DNA of 32,000 nt from Candidatus Saccharimonadota bacterium (GTDB lineage: Bacteria; Pseudomonadota; Alphaproteobacteria; CAJXXZ01; 1604HC), in contig NZ_CP043314.1 of assembly GCF_008189525.1 (NCBI RefSeq), positions 30,001-62,000 of the forward strand, read 5' to 3'. The first letter of the stretch is position 1, and each line of letters opens with the position of its first letter. Both the position numbers and the translations under genes were made by a program. Below, in pieces: positions 863 to 30,131 of the stretch. Under the pieces are notes generated by a model. It had not been told where the DNA came from. It saw nothing but the letters and a program-made list of their open reading frames with translations, and did no database searches.

Positions 863-1531
863 TTACGCCTTCTTATTTATATTAGATTTCCTGGTTATAT
901 TAGAATTATATTTCTTGTTTGGGCCTAAGGGCTTTAAGCTTACATTTCTTGTAGATTTTGCTAAATTATTCCTTTTTACAGGGTTTGTTCTAATTGACTT
1001 AGAGTTAGGAAGTTTATAGCTTATATTATTTTGGTTTCTTAGGTTTTTTGAATTTTCTGTTTCTGTAGGATTATTTAATTTGATAGTTTTTTGTTCATTG
1101 TTAATAGTGTTTCTATTTTTATTAATACCATCATCAATTAATGTGCCTTGATTATTAGGAGTATTTCCATCATAAGCTCCATTAATAGATTTCTGATCAT
1201 TATGGATTGGATTAGATGAGCTATCTGTATTCTTTTGTGCATTTTGTACATTAGATAGATTTCTAAGCTCAGATATATTCTGCTTGCTTTCTCTTTTTAC
1301 AAGAATTCCTGTGTATAAACAGAAAAAAACAAACATTGTAGCAAAGAAATAAGTAGCTTTTTCTGCTGGGTTTAATTTGTATCTTTTTTTTGGTCCTATG
1401 TTTTGCCCTATTCTTTCTTCTGGGTTTTGCAGAAAAATAACTAAAGACATTAAAATTACTGCCAAAAGGCTAAAAAACCATGAAATATATAACATAAGAT
1501 TTATTCTATTGAAAATTTTCTTCTTTATCAA
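863..1531 (-). CDS. secG: SecG-like preprotein translocase subunit with a ~140-aa Asn-rich C-terminal tail
   Basis: Two N-terminal TM helices in SecG layout: LMLYISWFFSLLAVILMSLVIFLQ, a loop, then KATYFFATMFVFFCLYTGIL (compare E. coli RMTALLATLFFIISLVLGNI). It lies immediately upstream of pyrG, which I recall as common synteny in alphaproteobacteria. The track start is TTG at 1531; the ATG at 1495 (MLYISW...) is an alternative. The tail is low complexity. Confidence 0.5.
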   Translation of the reverse strand: MIKKKIFNRINLMLYISWFFSLLAVILMSLVIFLQNPEERIGQNIGPKKRYKLNPAEKATYFFATMFVFFCLYTGILVKRESKQNISELRNLSNVQNAQKNTDSSSNPIHNDQKSINGAYDGNTPNNQGTLIDDGINKNRNTINNEQKTIKLNNPTETENSKNLRNQNNISYKLPNSKSIRTNPVKRNNLAKSTRNVSLKPLGPNKKYNSNITRKSNINKKA

Positions 1532-2172: not shown

Positions 2173-2203
2173 ATTTAAGTTTGTATTTAAGTTTGTATTT
2201 AAG
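2173..2203. repeat. 12-bp tandem repeat (atttaagtttgt), about 2.6 copies, ending 1 nt before the SD of the DUF4280 gene
   Basis: Read directly: atttaagtttgt at 2173-2184, again at 2185-2196, and atttaag at 2197-2203. AGGAG follows at 2205-2209. Confidence 0.8.
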
Positions 2204-2209
2204 CAGGAG

Positions 2210-2602
2210 ATGAAAATGATATCTGTTACTAGTTCAGGGTGTATGAGTTGTACAATGGGACTTATTCCTTCTATGTTGGGCGTTTTGCCAATAAATAGGG
2301 TTATGACTGACTCTAAAATTCAATCTAATATTATGGACCATATGCCTTTGGTAAATGTTATGTCTTTTGGTATGTGTAAAACTCCTACTAACCCTGCAGT
2401 TGCTGCAGTTATAATTGCTAGCTTAGGAAGTGTTACACAAGCACCATGTATTCCAATGACTATGTCCCCATGGATGCCAGGATCACCAACAGTGCTTGTC
2501 GGTGGAAAGCCTGCTGTTTCTAAGGATTGTAAGTTAATGTGTGCTTACGGTGGGATGATTAGTATAACTAGCCCTGGTCAATTCACAGCTAAGATTCCTT
2601 AA
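2210..2602 (+). CDS. DUF4280 / PAAR-like protein (putative T6SS spike-tip protein), stand-alone with no effector extension
   Basis: A small protein of about 130 aa with six Cys (positions 11, 14, 56, 80, 107, 111). Motifs match the DUF4280 pattern: CMSCTMG, MPLVNVMSFGMCKT, APCIP, W.PGSPTVLVGGKPA, DCKLMCAYGGMISI. AGGAG at 2205-2209 abuts the ATG at 2210, so the ATG at 2216 (MISVT...) is the more likely start. Confidence 0.75.
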   Translation: MKMISVTSSGCMSCTMGLIPSMLGVLPINRVMTDSKIQSNIMDHMPLVNVMSFGMCKTPTNPAVAAVIIASLGSVTQAPCIPMTMSPWMPGSPTVLVGGKPAVSKDCKLMCAYGGMISITSPGQFTAKIP

Positions 2603-2720: not shown

Positions 2721-3785
2721 TTGTGTATGTTAATTTCCATTTTTCATGCTTTTTATACTAATATATCGGTTTTCTTAAGCAATTTTTATGTATCTATGAT
2801 CTCTTTTTGTATATTCTTATCTTCTTATTTGTACGCAATTTTATTTATAAGCATACTAGTGATTGCACACGAATTTGGTCATTTTTATGTTGCTTTAAAG
2901 CACGGAGTTAGGGCTAAAGAATTTTCAGTAGGAATGGGATGGAAGCTGTTTTCTACTAGAGATAAAAATGGCACAATATGGACTTTTAGATCTATACCGT
3001 TTGGTGGATATGTCTCTTTTTATGAGACAGATATAAACGGAAAAACAATAGATAACATAAGTTTAATTAGGAGAATTACAGTATACTTAGCAGGTCCAGC
3101 AGCAAATTTGATTGTAGCTTTCCTAGCTTTCAATTTAATGTTTGTTATAAGAGGAATACCTAAAATAAGGTTCACTTACAAAAACACAGAAATTATAAGT
3201 ATTAATAATGAATTACCCAAAGTATCTATAATGAAAATAATGAGAAATTCTTCAGAATATGAGTCTCTGGAAAATAGAAAAGTAGGGTTACAAACTAGTC
3301 AAGGTAACTTAGTAATAGATATTGGGGATTTGAAAAATAATTTGATTTCAAACATATATTATTTTAGGGGTAGTTTTATAAATATAATTCGAGCTTCCTG
3401 GAAGTATCTTGCTGATAGTATACGGTTGAATCTAACTTCTATTTTTGATTTGTTTTCAGGAAAGAAAGTTAATGTTTCAGGGCCTATAGGCATATTGCAT
3501 GCTTCTAAAGGGATAGCTAAATCATTTTCTGGAGCTTTAGAATGGATAGCTATGGTTTCCATAGGATTAGCTATATTTAACCTTATGCCTTTTGTACCAC
3601 TTGATGGGGGTAGAATTGTTCACGACTTGTTGTCTAGATATTTAGGGAAGAAAGCTGCTGCTTTATATGAACGAGCTTGCCTTGTATTATTTTATGCAAT
3701 GATTATTTATGTGTTTTCAAAAGACATAAATAAGATTGTTTCAAGCAAAATTATATCTCATAAGAAAGTCGGATTGTTAAAATGA
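2721..3785 (+). CDS. rseP: RseP-type site-2 zinc metalloprotease (M50 family)
   Basis: It has the HEFGHF (HExxH) motif in the first TM region, the C-terminal NLMPFVPLDGG motif, and the canonical position directly upstream of bamA (ATGA overlap at 3782-3785). The track start is TTG at 2721. The ATG at 2796 (MISFCIFLSSYLYAILFISILVIAHEFGHF) is more typical for the family. Confidence 0.88.
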   Translation: MCMLISIFHAFYTNISVFLSNFYVSMISFCIFLSSYLYAILFISILVIAHEFGHFYVALKHGVRAKEFSVGMGWKLFSTRDKNGTIWTFRSIPFGGYVSFYETDINGKTIDNISLIRRITVYLAGPAANLIVAFLAFNLMFVIRGIPKIRFTYKNTEIISINNELPKVSIMKIMRNSSEYESLENRKVGLQTSQGNLVIDIGDLKNNLISNIYYFRGSFINIIRASWKYLADSIRLNLTSIFDLFSGKKVNVSGPIGILHASKGIAKSFSGALEWIAMVSIGLAIFNLMPFVPLDGGRIVHDLLSRYLGKKAAALYERACLVLFYAMIIYVFSKDINKIVSSKIISHKKVGLLK

Positions 3786-8216: not shown

Positions 8217-11200
8217 TTATTTTTTAGCAAGTGATTTCTTGGTAGGTTTAGATTTAGTATTCTTACATGATTTAGGAGTAATTGTTTTTCTTTTAAAAAA
8301 TACTGCTGGAGCTTTAAGTTTAAAATTAGGCCATGATTTCAAATATCCATCAATCTCCATTTTTATCCAAGTGGAAACTTTCTCACCATTTTTTAGTAGC
8401 GCTTCATATTTTATTTCCTTTATATTTCCTTTAGTTTGTGAAATATATTTATTTATCCATTTTAGCAAAGGAATGCTTCCATTTAGTATTTCTTTATTGT
8501 GCTTATTCCCGTTCTTAAACAGCAAGTTGTTCTCCTTAGATAAGGATAATAGCGTTTTCAAAGTTGTTGAGCTTAACGGGATTGTAAATGGATCACTCTG
8601 CAATGAATATTCCTGGGTGCCGAATATAAATTTAGAGTTAGATATATTTTCAATCATTGATTCACAGTTTCTACTCCTCATGGTGATTTTAATATTTGTA
8701 GCCTTACCTTTTGGATCAAAATAAGCTGCTACGAATTTTATAGATCTTTCCATGTTTTCTAGAAAATCTAGAGTATTTTTGCTTAAATTTAATTTCTCTG
8801 CATTTTGCTCATATTTAGTATTATTCTTAAATTCATTCCATTTATTGTGCAATTTTTCTGCACTGGCTTTATTATTTATGTAAGGAAAAGTACTTGCTTC
8901 TTTCTCCATATATTTCTTGAATTTGCTATACTCTAGTTCGAAGTTTTGTTTGTTCTTATCTTTACACTGTGTCTTTATATTTGAAAATACTTTTCCTCCA
9001 ATTAGTTCGAATATTTTGCTTTGATTTACTTTGCTTGTAGCATCTGAATCACAGTTTGGATTCTCAAAATAATTCATTCCATTTATGATTATCTCTTCTA
9101 TTTGTTTTATAACCGAGTCATCTCCTTTTTTATGCTTATCAACTTCTAATAGTATTTTGCTCCACTTTTCTACTATTTCTATTTGAGGTTCATAATCTAT
9201 TTCATGTATTTTCTTTATCATTTCTATAACTGGCTTAGCAAAGTTGCAAATTTTAATTAGTTCAGCTTGCTCTCTTTCTAATTTAGAAATAATTTTATCT
9301 TTGTTCATAAAGAAAAACTTCTTGTTTTTAAAATCTATATACAAATTAGCATTTTCCAACATTTTATCAATTCTAAACAGTGATTTGTAGCATTGATCCA
9401 TCAGCATTGTTTTAAGGATTTGGTACATATTATTATCATTTTCCTTAAGTGTAGACAGTATCTTGATCAGAGAATGAGTATTCGATTCTAGATTTTTCTT
9501 AACTATTTGCTCTGATTGGTTCGGAACGCTAGAAATAGTATCTGTAAGAATCTTAGCATCTTCTAGCTCTGTTTCTATGAATTTTATCAAATGTTCTAAC
9601 GCCATAGATTCTAATGTAGGTTTTAGTTTAGGTTTCTTCTGAAGCAGTCCAGAAGACATGAAGCTTTCGAACGAAGATATAGCATCTACTGTAGATCTTA
9701 TAATTACAGAATCCCAGGTTAATGTTTTATGAGCAGGAATATTTGTATTCAGTGTTTGGGTTTCTTTTTGCATAAACTGTTTTGCAGAAAGTATGTTTAG
9801 ATAACCCTGAAATTCTTCGAATTCTTTGGAAAGTTCTACTTTTCCTGATTTTGTCTGGATTATCTTTCCTACCACAGGAACTTTGTGATTCTCTAAGATC
9901 TTTTTCAGTTTTACAGATGAATCTTTAAGGCTTTCTGTAGTTTTCCTATGAGCTTTTTCTCCAAGTATAGAGCTATTCTTTAATCTAAATAACATGGAAG
10001 TGAATTTAGATCCGAAGTTTATATTATCTTGTAAAATCCATTTTAACTCTTGCCTATTAAAGTGGCTTATAAAGTTCTCTACAATCTCTTTTAGAACATG
10101 TATGTTATGGAATTTATTTTTATTATGTTCAATGCTCCATAGTGTGTTTTCTAACTTAGTTAAGTGAGGGTTCACATTTTCATATTCGAATGTATTTTTC
10201 AAAAATCTTTCAAGTAATTTGTTGAATATTAAGTTTATTTTATTCTCAAATTTAAACACAGATTCTATTTTTATATTTATATGATTTATTGCTTTTATGA
10301 AAACTTTCTTGTTGTCGAAAAATATTTTTTGTAATTTTATGTTGAATAATTTTTCCATTACATATGTTAGATCATCTATATTTTTCAAATATGGAAGTCT
10401 TTCAATTCTGTAATAAATATTTTCTATTTCAGAAATTTCTTTTACATAGCTATATAACCTAATTAGATCGACTGAATTTGTTGGATCGTAATAATCTGGG
10501 TTTGATTTGTTTACTTTCTTTAGTGGTCCATTAGAAAGTGATTTTAGCTTATAAGAAAATTTGCTTTGTAGCGGATCAAACAATACTTTTTCGAACAATT
10601 GGCCAAGGAATTTTTCTAGATTCTTACCTAACTTAGAATTCCATGATGCAGGGATTGATACAAATTTTAGATTTTTTGCATTTAACTTGCTCATAGTAAC
10701 TATTAATGAGTCGACTTGCTTGGAGAAATTCTCATCTTCAGATTCTGCATAAGTAAGGCTTCTCAATGACTTAGATTTCTTTAGTATTTCGTTTGCTGAA
10801 TCTATATTTGCCAAGAAATCTACCTGTATTTTTTTTATGTTGTGAATAAAGTGAATAAAGTTAAATATTGATAAAATACTTAACGCTATTAAAGATGCTT
10901 GTATAAACATAATTTTACGTTTCTTAGAGAAAGCAATTTTTTTAATACTATTTGTCAGATATTTCTCTTGGAATATCTTGTTTGTAAATAGGTTGGTAGA
11001 GAAGAATATTTTGTTAACAGCATGTCTCATGCAAACATTTTTTAGTTTCCCAAACTTAGATTCTCTAAGTGACTCATTTATTTGGCTCTGCGCTTTTGAA
11101 AATGAAGTGGCAGATCCAGTAAAGTAAATCCCTCTAATATTTAAATTGTCATGATATGAATTGGATTTTATGATGTAATTTAAGAAAGTTTCTATTTTTC

Positions 11201-12095
11201 TCTTTATTTTCATGAACTGAAATGGAAAAACATACAGTCCACTGTGATTTTGGTAATCTACGCTTCCAACAGTTAGTTTCTGACTAATATAATGTATCCT
11301 AGAAATAATTTCATCAAACATTTCATCAACAAATATTGTATTGTTGGAGGAAGAATTCGACCATCCAAATATTTCATTTTTATCTTTTTCAGGGATAGAA
11401 TTGCAAAAGTTACCAAATCCAGGTATGCAATCTGCATTTGTAAATACTATGTATATAGGAAAGCTTATTGATAAGTTCTTTTGCATTTGCCATATTTTTA
11501 TGTAGTATTCTTCGGCTGCTTTATATATATTCTCGTCAGAGGTTAATATATCTTTCAGAGAGACAGTGAGTACAGCTGAATCTATTGGAGAATCAGGCCT
11601 GTAGTAGTTAAGTAGGTTTAACGTATTATGCCATTTCAAATCTGTGTTTTCTGATGAGGATGAGAATATTTCTGAGCTAGTATCTAATATTATTCCTTGA
11701 TTGAAGAATGACCATGTACAAGTTTCTCCAATTATATCTTCAAATGGCTTCTCTGTCTCCAAGCTCTGTATTAATGAGGTTTTTCCAGAGCTTTGCTTTC
11801 CTATTAAAATTGTTAGAGGAAGTTTGTATTTAAAGTTTCTGCCACCTATAAATGATTTTAAGGTTTGCATCGCCTCTTCAAATGCCTCTTCATCCTTGTT
11901 GCTTTTTAGGCAGCTTCTTTCGAGGGTTATATTGAAAGAATCTAATAAGTAGTTCTTAGCTTTTTCTGCCATCTTTTTTATATTTGTAATACCAGGAAGG
12001 AATTTTAATATTAAGATTATAAGAATTGCTATTAATGCGTACAAAGCATATGTTACGTACTGTAGATCAATTTTGCTTATTTCGTTTAAAATCAT
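8217..12095 (-). CDS. tssM: TssM / IcmF-family inner-membrane NTPase (T6SS membrane-complex component)
   Basis: 1292 aa with an N-terminal TM helix, then Walker A GKQSSGKT (nt 11778-11801, checked codon by codon). It shows the IcmF cytoplasmic-domain pattern: CTWSFFNQGIILDTSS, RPDSPIDSAVLTVSLKDIL, FPIYIVFTNADCIPGFGNF, EIFGWS, VFPFQFMKIK, IRGIYFTGSA. A TM helix follows (IMFIQASLIALSILSIFNFIHFI), then a long diverged C-terminal domain. ATGA overlap with tssL. Confidence 0.85.
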   Translation of the reverse strand: MILNEISKIDLQYVTYALYALIAILIILILKFLPGITNIKKMAEKAKNYLLDSFNITLERSCLKSNKDEEAFEEAMQTLKSFIGGRNFKYKLPLTILIGKQSSGKTSLIQSLETEKPFEDIIGETCTWSFFNQGIILDTSSEIFSSSSENTDLKWHNTLNLLNYYRPDSPIDSAVLTVSLKDILTSDENIYKAAEEYYIKIWQMQKNLSISFPIYIVFTNADCIPGFGNFCNSIPEKDKNEIFGWSNSSSNNTIFVDEMFDEIISRIHYISQKLTVGSVDYQNHSGLYVFPFQFMKIKRKIETFLNYIIKSNSYHDNLNIRGIYFTGSATSFSKAQSQINESLRESKFGKLKNVCMRHAVNKIFFSTNLFTNKIFQEKYLTNSIKKIAFSKKRKIMFIQASLIALSILSIFNFIHFIHNIKKIQVDFLANIDSANEILKKSKSLRSLTYAESEDENFSKQVDSLIVTMSKLNAKNLKFVSIPASWNSKLGKNLEKFLGQLFEKVLFDPLQSKFSYKLKSLSNGPLKKVNKSNPDYYDPTNSVDLIRLYSYVKEISEIENIYYRIERLPYLKNIDDLTYVMEKLFNIKLQKIFFDNKKVFIKAINHINIKIESVFKFENKINLIFNKLLERFLKNTFEYENVNPHLTKLENTLWSIEHNKNKFHNIHVLKEIVENFISHFNRQELKWILQDNINFGSKFTSMLFRLKNSSILGEKAHRKTTESLKDSSVKLKKILENHKVPVVGKIIQTKSGKVELSKEFEEFQGYLNILSAKQFMQKETQTLNTNIPAHKTLTWDSVIIRSTVDAISSFESFMSSGLLQKKPKLKPTLESMALEHLIKFIETELEDAKILTDTISSVPNQSEQIVKKNLESNTHSLIKILSTLKENDNNMYQILKTMLMDQCYKSLFRIDKMLENANLYIDFKNKKFFFMNKDKIISKLEREQAELIKICNFAKPVIEMIKKIHEIDYEPQIEIVEKWSKILLEVDKHKKGDDSVIKQIEEIIINGMNYFENPNCDSDATSKVNQSKIFELIGGKVFSNIKTQCKDKNKQNFELEYSKFKKYMEKEASTFPYINNKASAEKLHNKWNEFKNNTKYEQNAEKLNLSKNTLDFLENMERSIKFVAAYFDPKGKATNIKITMRSRNCESMIENISNSKFIFGTQEYSLQSDPFTIPLSSTTLKTLLSLSKENNLLFKNGNKHNKEILNGSIPLLKWINKYISQTKGNIKEIKYEALLKNGEKVSTWIKMEIDGYLKSWPNFKLKAPAVFFKRKTITPKSCKNTKSKPTKKSLAKK

Positions 12096-12931
12096 GACTT
12101 GCTCCAGTTGAATGTGTTGTTTATAAGGTTAAGTTTTCGGTTATTTGCAGAGCATGAATTTTGGTCACTGCTTTCTTCTTTGTTTATTCGTGCGTTCATT
12201 ATCTTTTTTTTCATTAAATGCATTTCAGACGTTTTTGAAATTGCACTATTTATATCATGTGTGAAATAATTCCAGAGAATATAAGTCGACCCTATATATA
12301 TAAGAATTCCCATAGTCATTATAGATATAATTCTTCTTGTGTTTTTATAAGTGTTTCTAGGTCTTCCAATCATATTGTGTTTCTCAGCTTGAGGGAACAA
12401 ATGTTCATCAGACAGATAGTCATAGCTTGTTTTATTTACGAAATCAAATAGATCCTGCTTTAGCTTATGTATTGTTCCATTATCATTTATGCTTCTGTAC
12501 TGACCTCTAAAACCTGATCCAAGAAGAGTTATATAAATTGATCCTAACTCGTATTTGTTGTGTGAGTTTCGTTTTAGAAAGCTATTTATATTTTCAAATA
12601 TCTTTGACCCAGCATAATATGTGGAGAAGAATTTTTGTTCCATAAGAGATTTTTGCCATTCTTTCTTCTGGTTCCAATTTACATTGATAAAAATTTCATC
12701 AGCAAAAGCACAGCAAATGTAGCTATATTCTTCATATGCATTGCTCATTAAACTTCCCTCATTATCAAAAAGTTCCTTCTGATCTTTTAATAGTCGTATT
12801 AGTACATTTTTGATTTCTTCTTGATTTATTTTTTCTGGTTCTATTAAAGCCTGCTCTTTGAACTTTAGTACTTCTATATAATAATTTTGGAAGTGCTTTA
12901 ATAGAAAAGATCTAGCTATTAAATTAATCAT
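12092..12931 (-). CDS. tssL: TssL / DotU-family protein (T6SS membrane-complex component), no peptidoglycan-binding extension
   Basis: DotU signature: YEEYSYICCAFADEIFINVNWNQKKEWQKSLMEQKFFSTYYAGSKIFENI...ELGSIYITLLGSGFRGQYR, then a single C-terminal TM (IISIMTMGILIYIGSTYILWNYF). The track start is TTG at 12958. I prefer the ATG at 12931 (MINLIARS...), which follows AAGGA at suitable spacing. Confidence 0.8.
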   Translation of the reverse strand: MINLIARSFLLKHFQNYYIEVLKFKEQALIEPEKINQEEIKNVLIRLLKDQKELFDNEGSLMSNAYEEYSYICCAFADEIFINVNWNQKKEWQKSLMEQKFFSTYYAGSKIFENINSFLKRNSHNKYELGSIYITLLGSGFRGQYRSINDNGTIHKLKQDLFDFVNKTSYDYLSDEHLFPQAEKHNMIGRPRNTYKNTRRIISIMTMGILIYIGSTYILWNYFTHDINSAISKTSEMHLMKKKIMNARINKEESSDQNSCSANNRKLNLINNTFNWSKS

Positions 12932-13067
12932 TTCTATTCCTTTTAAACATTTGAACAAAAGATAGTTTTTAATTGTAAAAAAAGTATAAATTTTAGTGTA
13001 ATTTTTATTTGTTTTTATTATTTATTTTGTAGAAAATAAATATAAGCTGGGTTTTGTTTTAAGTTAA

Positions 13068-29988: not shown

Positions 29989-30131
29989 TTTTTCTCCTAA
30001 CATGGTCAGAAATTAAACATAAATAATAAATTAACACGTTGGTTTTATTTTACAGTAACAGCTCATAAAACACAAACAACTTTTGTGATGAGAATATATT
30101 AATAAATTAGAATATTTGGTAAGGTGTATAT

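Follow-up and report, generated by a model that had tools for sequence, protein, structure and literature searches.

A stand-alone DUF4280 gene as the probable source of the PAAR-like spike tip of a dispersed T6SS in a reduced endosymbiont genome

A modified T6SS has been described in all diplonemid endosymbionts (George et al. 2019/2020). Table S3 of that work lists "iglG/PAAR" for each of four endosymbiont genomes and, in one of its columns, lacks tssA. The T6SS of Holosporales is dispersed and modular (Midha et al. 2021; PMC8163844), the published modules being [tssB-tssC-hcp], [ywqK-vgrG] and tssK-tssL-tssM-tssA (PMC8163844). A stand-alone DUF4280 gene of 393 bp, CPBP_01201 of the relative Ca. 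Bodocaedibacter vickermanii, is listed under T6SS in Table S3 of Midha et al. 2021; in a shallow RNA-seq data set it received 0 reads, against 12-133 for the other T6SS genes. The gene analyzed here resembles the stand-alone DUF4280 genes of Holosporales endosymbionts in family, in size (130 aa in Bodocaedibacter), in its separation from the other T6SS modules and in belonging to the dispersed T6SS of a protist endosymbiont, and no substantive difference separates them. The papers give these genes as supplementary-table entries, without discussion.

DUF4280 has been classed as type PAAR_H (Zhang et al. 2021), and four conserved cysteines are the defining feature of the family (PMC5014421, PMC5349215). 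In Francisella IglG, a DUF4280 protein proposed to cap VgrG (Rigard et al. 2016, PMC5014421), each of the four cysteines is needed for secretion, and the four contribute to Fe/Zn binding (PMC5014421). A DUF4280-type fold sits on the VgrG tip in Bacteroides, where it belongs to BtpeA (Bfe5; PDB 9jg8/9jg9), a 608-aa effector that has a DUF3289 toxin part and needs the adaptor BtapC. Other tips belong to other families. The canonical PAAR proteins (PF05488; V. cholerae VCA0105, PDB 4JIV) have PAAR motifs and a His3Cys site. In the case of the non-PAAR DUF4150 "PIPY" tips (Sachar et al. 2025, PMC11883445), the tip gene follows vgrG and an accessory gene; the latter specifies the DUF2169 chaperone on which these tips depend (PMC11883445).

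The gene considered here lies at 2216-2602, on the forward strand, of a 32,000-nucleotide stretch of DNA, the window of this study (positions 30,001 to 62,000 of contig NZ_CP043314.1), and is almost certainly the "iglG/PAAR" entry of Table S3 in George et al. It encodes 128 aa plus stop, as a single domain of the DUF4280 (PAAR-like, PAAR_H) type without extension. A slightly longer open reading frame, 2210-2602 (+), 130 aa, includes an additional in-frame ATG at 2210. This first ATG is directly abutted by a Shine-Dalgarno-like AGGAG (2205-2209, +; read directly from the sequence), which leaves 6 nt between itself and the ATG at 2216. The publicly annotated gene has the 128-aa form (100% identity), and homologues are 127-131 aa long (n=79, from genome records). 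Together with the spacing of the AGGAG, these data indicate that ATG 2216 is the likely start. It is very probably the true one, in agreement with the first-pass annotation, which had chosen it from the placement of the AGGAG.

The 5′ leader also contains a perfect 12-bp tandem repeat (ATTTAAGTTTGT x 2.6) at 2173-2203 (TRF score 62, 100% identical). The first-pass annotation had noted that it abuts the ribosome-binding site. The repeat itself is genuine, but it has no special standing, as 37 arrays in the genome score at least 62. Its unit does not recur anywhere in the genome, the leaders of other T6SS genes included; being confined to 2173-2203, it is rejected as a regulatory motif common to T6SS genes. 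Probably, the repeat is a slippage product without demonstrated function.

The Cys-rich product had been read as a DUF4280/PAAR-like protein, with a Pfam PF14107/PAAR profile search and a structure prediction proposed as checks. The profile search gave PF14107 (DUF4280) at E 2e-29, with 102.8 bits against a cut-off of 26.3; the alignment runs through residues 7-124 of the 130-aa form and profile positions 2-109 of 109. The canonical PAAR_motif (PF05488), by contrast, remained below threshold, with 16.7 bits against 27 over one short stretch (residues 89-114). Two alignments, with 25 and with 129 members from many phyla, show no variation at four cysteines (C12, C54, C78 and C109), nor at P60 and W86. 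The spacing of the cysteines (42/24/31) is close to that in IglG (Cys 64, 105, 122 and 152).

With 25 sequences the AlphaFold2 model was unusable (pLDDT 51); 129 sequences gave a confident model with pLDDT 83.1 and pTM 0.74. The best match of this model in a Foldseek search of the PDB is 9jg8_B (E 2e-4, probability 1.0, TMq 0.67, rmsd 2.8 Å, 123 columns). This chain holds the N-terminal, PAAR-like part of BtpeA, seen by cryo-EM in a cargo complex on a VgrG spike. The third PDB match is a phage P1 baseplate chain. The alignment profile, too, matches 9jg8_B, over residues 6-114 and with all four cysteines aligned. A single-sequence search of the PDB returned noise plus a weak match to an eCIS tip protein, and a fold search of BFVD gave nothing significant, small phage proteins (one named "PAAR motif") appearing only at E of 0.07 or above. 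[quoted passage not shown] Profile, cysteines and fold together confirm that the 2216-2602 product is a genuine DUF4280 (PAAR-like) tip protein.

Within this class the protein is a bare domain. DUF4280 begins at residue 5 of the 128-aa form, and all 128 aa lie within it; the lack of an effector extension, noted at the outset, is thereby upheld, and the protein falls outside the specialised (evolved) PAAR effectors, which carry a fused toxin or other domain. This is one difference from BtpeA, whose DUF4280-type fold and four aligned cysteines are reproduced in the model; in addition, the two proteins are 22% identical, and BtpeA serves a T6SS-iii whereas the present system is of the proteobacterial type (TssL/TssM). 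The protein shares with IglG the four conserved cysteines and the proposed capping of VgrG, but it is not of the IglG type. IglG has an N-terminal amphipathic helical extension of about 58 residues that binds IglF, and the present protein lacks such an extension. Moreover, IglG belongs to an atypical T6SS-ii, and the sequence likeness is at family level only. Finally, in its proposed role and its predicted conical beta fold the protein resembles canonical PAAR proteins, but these differ in their profile, in their PAAR motifs, which are absent here, and in their His3Cys zinc site, in place of which a Cys4 site is predicted.

The genome consists of a single contig of 616,088 bp with 29.8% GC. 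Profile searches of the contig brought up a single DUF4280 gene and nothing of the canonical PAAR type. The T6SS genes among which this tip has to be placed are scattered. In contig coordinates, the DUF4280 gene is at 32 kb and tssM-tssL at 38-43 kb; a gene for a fused TssB-TssC (tssBC, 677 aa) is found at 369 kb, tssG-tssF at 375-378 kb, tssK at 508 kb (G000:C1:508486-509445, G000:C1 being this contig), about 465 kb from tssL-tssM, and MORN-vgrG at 596-599 kb. Within the window, tssM (IcmF-related; 8217-12095, reverse strand; PF14331, E 4e-42), for the membrane complex of the same T6SS, is overlapped at its start by 4 nt by tssL (DotU; 12092-12958, reverse strand; PF09850, E 1.8e-23). The dispersal of T6SS genes among housekeeping operons, which the first-pass annotation had proposed, is supported, the genes standing at separate loci at 32-599 kb. 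This layout conforms to the dispersed T6SS pattern of Holosporales endosymbionts, with tssK apart from tssL-tssM here and TssA and Hcp giving no Pfam match.

The spike-tip role had been made to hinge on the presence of VgrG or Hcp in the genome. On the first count the genome qualifies: vgrG (597-599 kb) is complete and encodes 857 aa with gpD, gp5 OB and gp5-C beta-helix domains, in which no toxin domain was found. Beside it is the gene for a MORN_2 protein of 192 aa, and nearby lies a second vgrG piece, a 249-aa N-terminal (5′) fragment. From vgrG to the DUF4280 gene the distance is about 565 kb by contig coordinates, shrinking to about 49 kb should the contig close into a circle. Four paralogous genes of 600-670 aa with near-identical N-termini flank vgrG and the 249-aa fragment (G000:C1:589495-601225). 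On the second count, Pfam found no Hcp in the genome; it found no TssA either, and a gp25/TssE-like match at 72.7 kb is sub-threshold. The position occupied by hcp in the published [tssB-tssC-hcp] module is taken here, right after tssBC, by a 209-aa ORF (G000:C1:371130-371759) whose C-terminal part is Hcp-like by eye only. This ORF has no Pfam match and no homologue among 5.8 billion proteins, and its assignment as Hcp is not borne out.

With Hcp and TssA unmatched and TssE below threshold, this T6SS may have undergone modification or partial decay. The same three results could be taken to mean that the T6SS is decaying and that the DUF4280 gene, detached from its operon, has become a disused relic. 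The 0 reads of the Ca. Bodocaedibacter homologue would fit such a picture, as would the outcome of a promoter search at the DUF4280 gene, which yielded nothing recognisable above chance. However, the reading frame is intact, the Shine-Dalgarno sequence is good and at the right spacing, and the four cysteines are kept along with every other invariant residue; the other large T6SS genes are intact as well. Furthermore, one DUF4280 copy is present in each of six same-family genomes (about 0.6-0.8 Mb each), where useless genes are normally lost, and retention in genomes so reduced argues for function. Five of the same-family copies are 46-51% identical to this gene and the sixth 31%; the gene is also found in several same-order genomes. 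Pairwise dN/dS values among six copies (this genome and five closer relatives) range from 0.12 to 0.34, with dS saturated. The gene is under purifying selection, and we consider it very improbable that it is a disused remnant.

The surroundings of the gene in the window are of the housekeeping kind. On the upstream side lie pyrG, a 222-aa ORF and then a membrane ORF of 139 aa (1623-2042, +) that belongs to no Pfam family; on the downstream side, rseP (2721-3785, +; Peptidase_M50, PF02163, E 2.4e-49) is the first gene of rseP-bamA-skp-fabZ. The end of tssM, at 8217, is 5.6 kb downstream of the DUF4280 gene, and more housekeeping genes follow beyond tssL. As originally reported, no VgrG, Hcp, chaperone or immunity gene adjoins the DUF4280 gene, its neighbours being the 139-aa membrane ORF and rseP. 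The 139-aa ORF has homologues in 5 of 6 same-family genomes, where they are about 7-50 kb from the DUF4280 gene; conserved in the family but that far apart in relatives, it is rejected as a DUF4280 partner. The 222-aa ORF (863-1531, reverse strand), between pyrG and the 139-aa ORF, gives weak matches to SecG-like or small membrane proteins (E 0.04-0.3) and, on these matches, may be an elongated SecG.

The DUF4280 gene and rseP are on the same strand, 118 bp separate the former from the first possible rseP start, and a search for a terminator-like site between the two found none. Such an arrangement raises the question of whether the gene was recruited to the envelope operon rseP-bamA-skp-fabZ and serves envelope biogenesis instead of secretion. 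The adjacency, however, is unique to this genome: DUF4280 was never found beside rseP among five same-family and five same-order genomes. Nor does family biology give any pointer to envelope assembly, and we regard recruitment of this kind as very unlikely indeed. A comparison of synteny upstream of rseP in related genomes, suggested in the first-pass annotation, found the DUF4280 gene of the relatives among unrelated housekeeping genes, and these surroundings differ from genome to genome in all six same-family genomes. The location directly upstream of rseP-bamA is correctly described, but it carries no conserved meaning; absent from every relative searched, the site before rseP is rejected as an ancestral or functional one. 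Given a different housekeeping context in each relative, the placement of the gene before rseP-bamA, at 5.6 kb from tssM, is put down to an accident of rearrangement in this genome. The uppS-cdsA-rseP order of the E. coli type is well established; it has no bearing here because synteny is broken throughout the family. In two same-family genomes, matches to rseP contain in-frame stops (G005:C1:69199-70119 and G004:C1:562248-563171; one TAA in the former, one TGA and one TAG in the latter). Either rseP may be eroding in these genomes or the matches may cross a gene boundary.

Very diverse bacteria have proteins of 128-129 aa that share 50-61% identity with this one. The genes of free-living homologues (50-60% identity) are often part of canonical T6SS clusters, where they come after vgrG and a MORN/YwqK-like gene and ahead of tssK-tssL-tssM. 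For instance, a 55%-identical homologue is encoded within the cluster tssF-tssG-clpV-vgrG-MORN_2 (248 aa)-DUF4280-two small genes-tssK-tssL-tssM-tssA. Among 60 non-Firmicutes genome loci, vgrG is within 7 kb at 35 and any T6SS core gene within 7 kb at 40; the remaining 20 are stand-alone, as exemplified by Competibacter, whose DUF4280 gene is found between ffh and hrpB. Homologues of 128 aa are equally conserved in Firmicutes without T6SS, so that the DUF4280 fold is not tied to T6SS alone, although one of these loci (L066, below) adjoins a baseplate gene.

We favor the interpretation, at a probability of about 0.8, that the 2216-2602 product forms the PAAR-like tip of the dispersed T6SS in this endosymbiont and that its gene was split from a vgrG-MORN/YwqK-like-DUF4280 module. 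The single 128-aa DUF4280 cone, presumably held by a metal ion on the four cysteines, would most likely cap the blunt beta-helix end of the trimer formed by the 857-aa VgrG. Capping would sharpen the spike and permit spike and baseplate to be assembled, and the DUF4280 protein would be fired out with the spike. With no toxin domain on the cone, any cargo would have to be carried by VgrG, by the tube or by a partner with a gene of its own. We infer that the DUF4280 protein is expressed, binds a metal, docks on this VgrG and is secreted. As for gene order, the MORN gene remained beside vgrG, as in the published [ywqK-vgrG] module, and the DUF4280 gene is separated from them; the latter would be the third member broken off the ancestral module, left as a lone gene by rearrangement in a reduced lineage and placed upstream of rseP by chance.

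The association of DUF4280 with MORN/YwqK-like genes recurs well beyond the canonical cluster described above. A MORN_2/MORN gene is within 600 bp of DUF4280 at 25 of 92 loci (examples are L032:7255-8387, L107:6971-9203, L027:7747-9020 and L028:7674-8693). It typically stands between vgrG and DUF4280 in Gram-negative T6SS clusters; two reduced same-order genomes (G007 and G011) have it next to DUF4280, and in Paenibacillaceae a gene for a MORN protein of 500-800 aa begins directly at the DUF4280 stop. The T6SS-b of P. phymatum has a YwqK-family gene directly between vgrG and a PAAR-like gene, an order given without comment (PMC8356804). The recurrent pairing across phyla seems to be undiscussed in the literature searched. 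In endosymbiont papers, the MORN/YwqK-family protein encoded beside vgrG is annotated as a T6SS "immunity" protein. Since the VgrG of this genome has no toxin domain, the label leaves the MORN neighbor without a cognate toxin.

Tentatively, the MORN/YwqK protein may instead be a dedicated partner of the DUF4280 tip (an adaptor, a chaperone or membrane-binding cargo), the trio being an ancient spike module that was pulled apart in this genome with all three members kept. As part of this proposal, which is drawn from gene order, the trio may be common to the T6SS of several Gram-negative phyla, and the DUF4280-MORN pair to phage-tail-like systems of Gram-positive bacteria. By analogy with other tips and from gene order, the MORN protein may act as accessory or cargo. 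The closest parallel is offered by the DUF4150 tips, in that the succession of vgrG, accessory gene and tip gene compares with vgrG-MORN-DUF4280; the tip family is a different one, however, and so is the accessory family, DUF2169 being a chaperone.

One may go a step further and view the DUF4280 protein mainly as a loading platform, which would work with MORN/YwqK as adaptor or cargo (not immunity); although their genes are now about 565 kb apart by contig coordinates, the two proteins would form a tip complex on VgrG that presents MORN repeats to host membranes. All of the above would be in keeping with this possibility: the 25 loci with a MORN_2 gene close by, the adjacency in the two reduced same-order genomes, the touching stop and start in Paenibacillaceae, the P. 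phymatum gene order, a VgrG without a toxin domain for an "immunity" protein to neutralise, and the precedent of the DUF4150 tips with their DUF2169 chaperone. On the other hand, this possibility is drawn from gene adjacency, 67 of the 92 loci have no adjacent MORN gene, and MORN and DUF4280 genes are unlinked in this and the other five same-family genomes, indicating that tight co-expression is not required. We rate a loading platform as conceivable but less likely than not, next to the simpler spike tip that we favor.

Gram-positive bacteria that lack a T6SS also have a DUF4280 protein of 128 aa, which shares 50-55% identity with its proteobacterial counterparts; its gene is linked to those of a large MORN protein and of a conserved protein of 550 aa (L066; also L049, L055, L062, L103 and L107). 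The Pfam scan of Gram-positive DUF4280 loci covered L066, from Paenibacillus sp. CF384. There (L066:6971-14071), DUF4280 and the MORN gene are followed, about 2.7 kb past the latter, by a baseplate gene of the Tail_P2_I (phage-P2-gpI) type. Judging from these genes, the locus is probably the edge of a phage-tail-like injection system.

The finding is correct, the gene is already catalogued, and the scattered layout of the T6SS is in print (George et al. 2019; Midha et al. 2021). What the present analysis fills in is the spike tip of this secretion machine, which the endosymbiont has preserved in a 616-kb genome marked by extreme gene loss. That it was retained supports the idea that the machine still operates where symbiont and host meet. 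The MORN/YwqK-DUF4280 pairing is the one possibly useful lead beyond the catalogued gene. Should the pairing prove real, what is at present labelled an immunity factor would be re-assigned to spike assembly or cargo, and DUF4280 tips would gain an accessory protein, as DUF4150 tips have in DUF2169.
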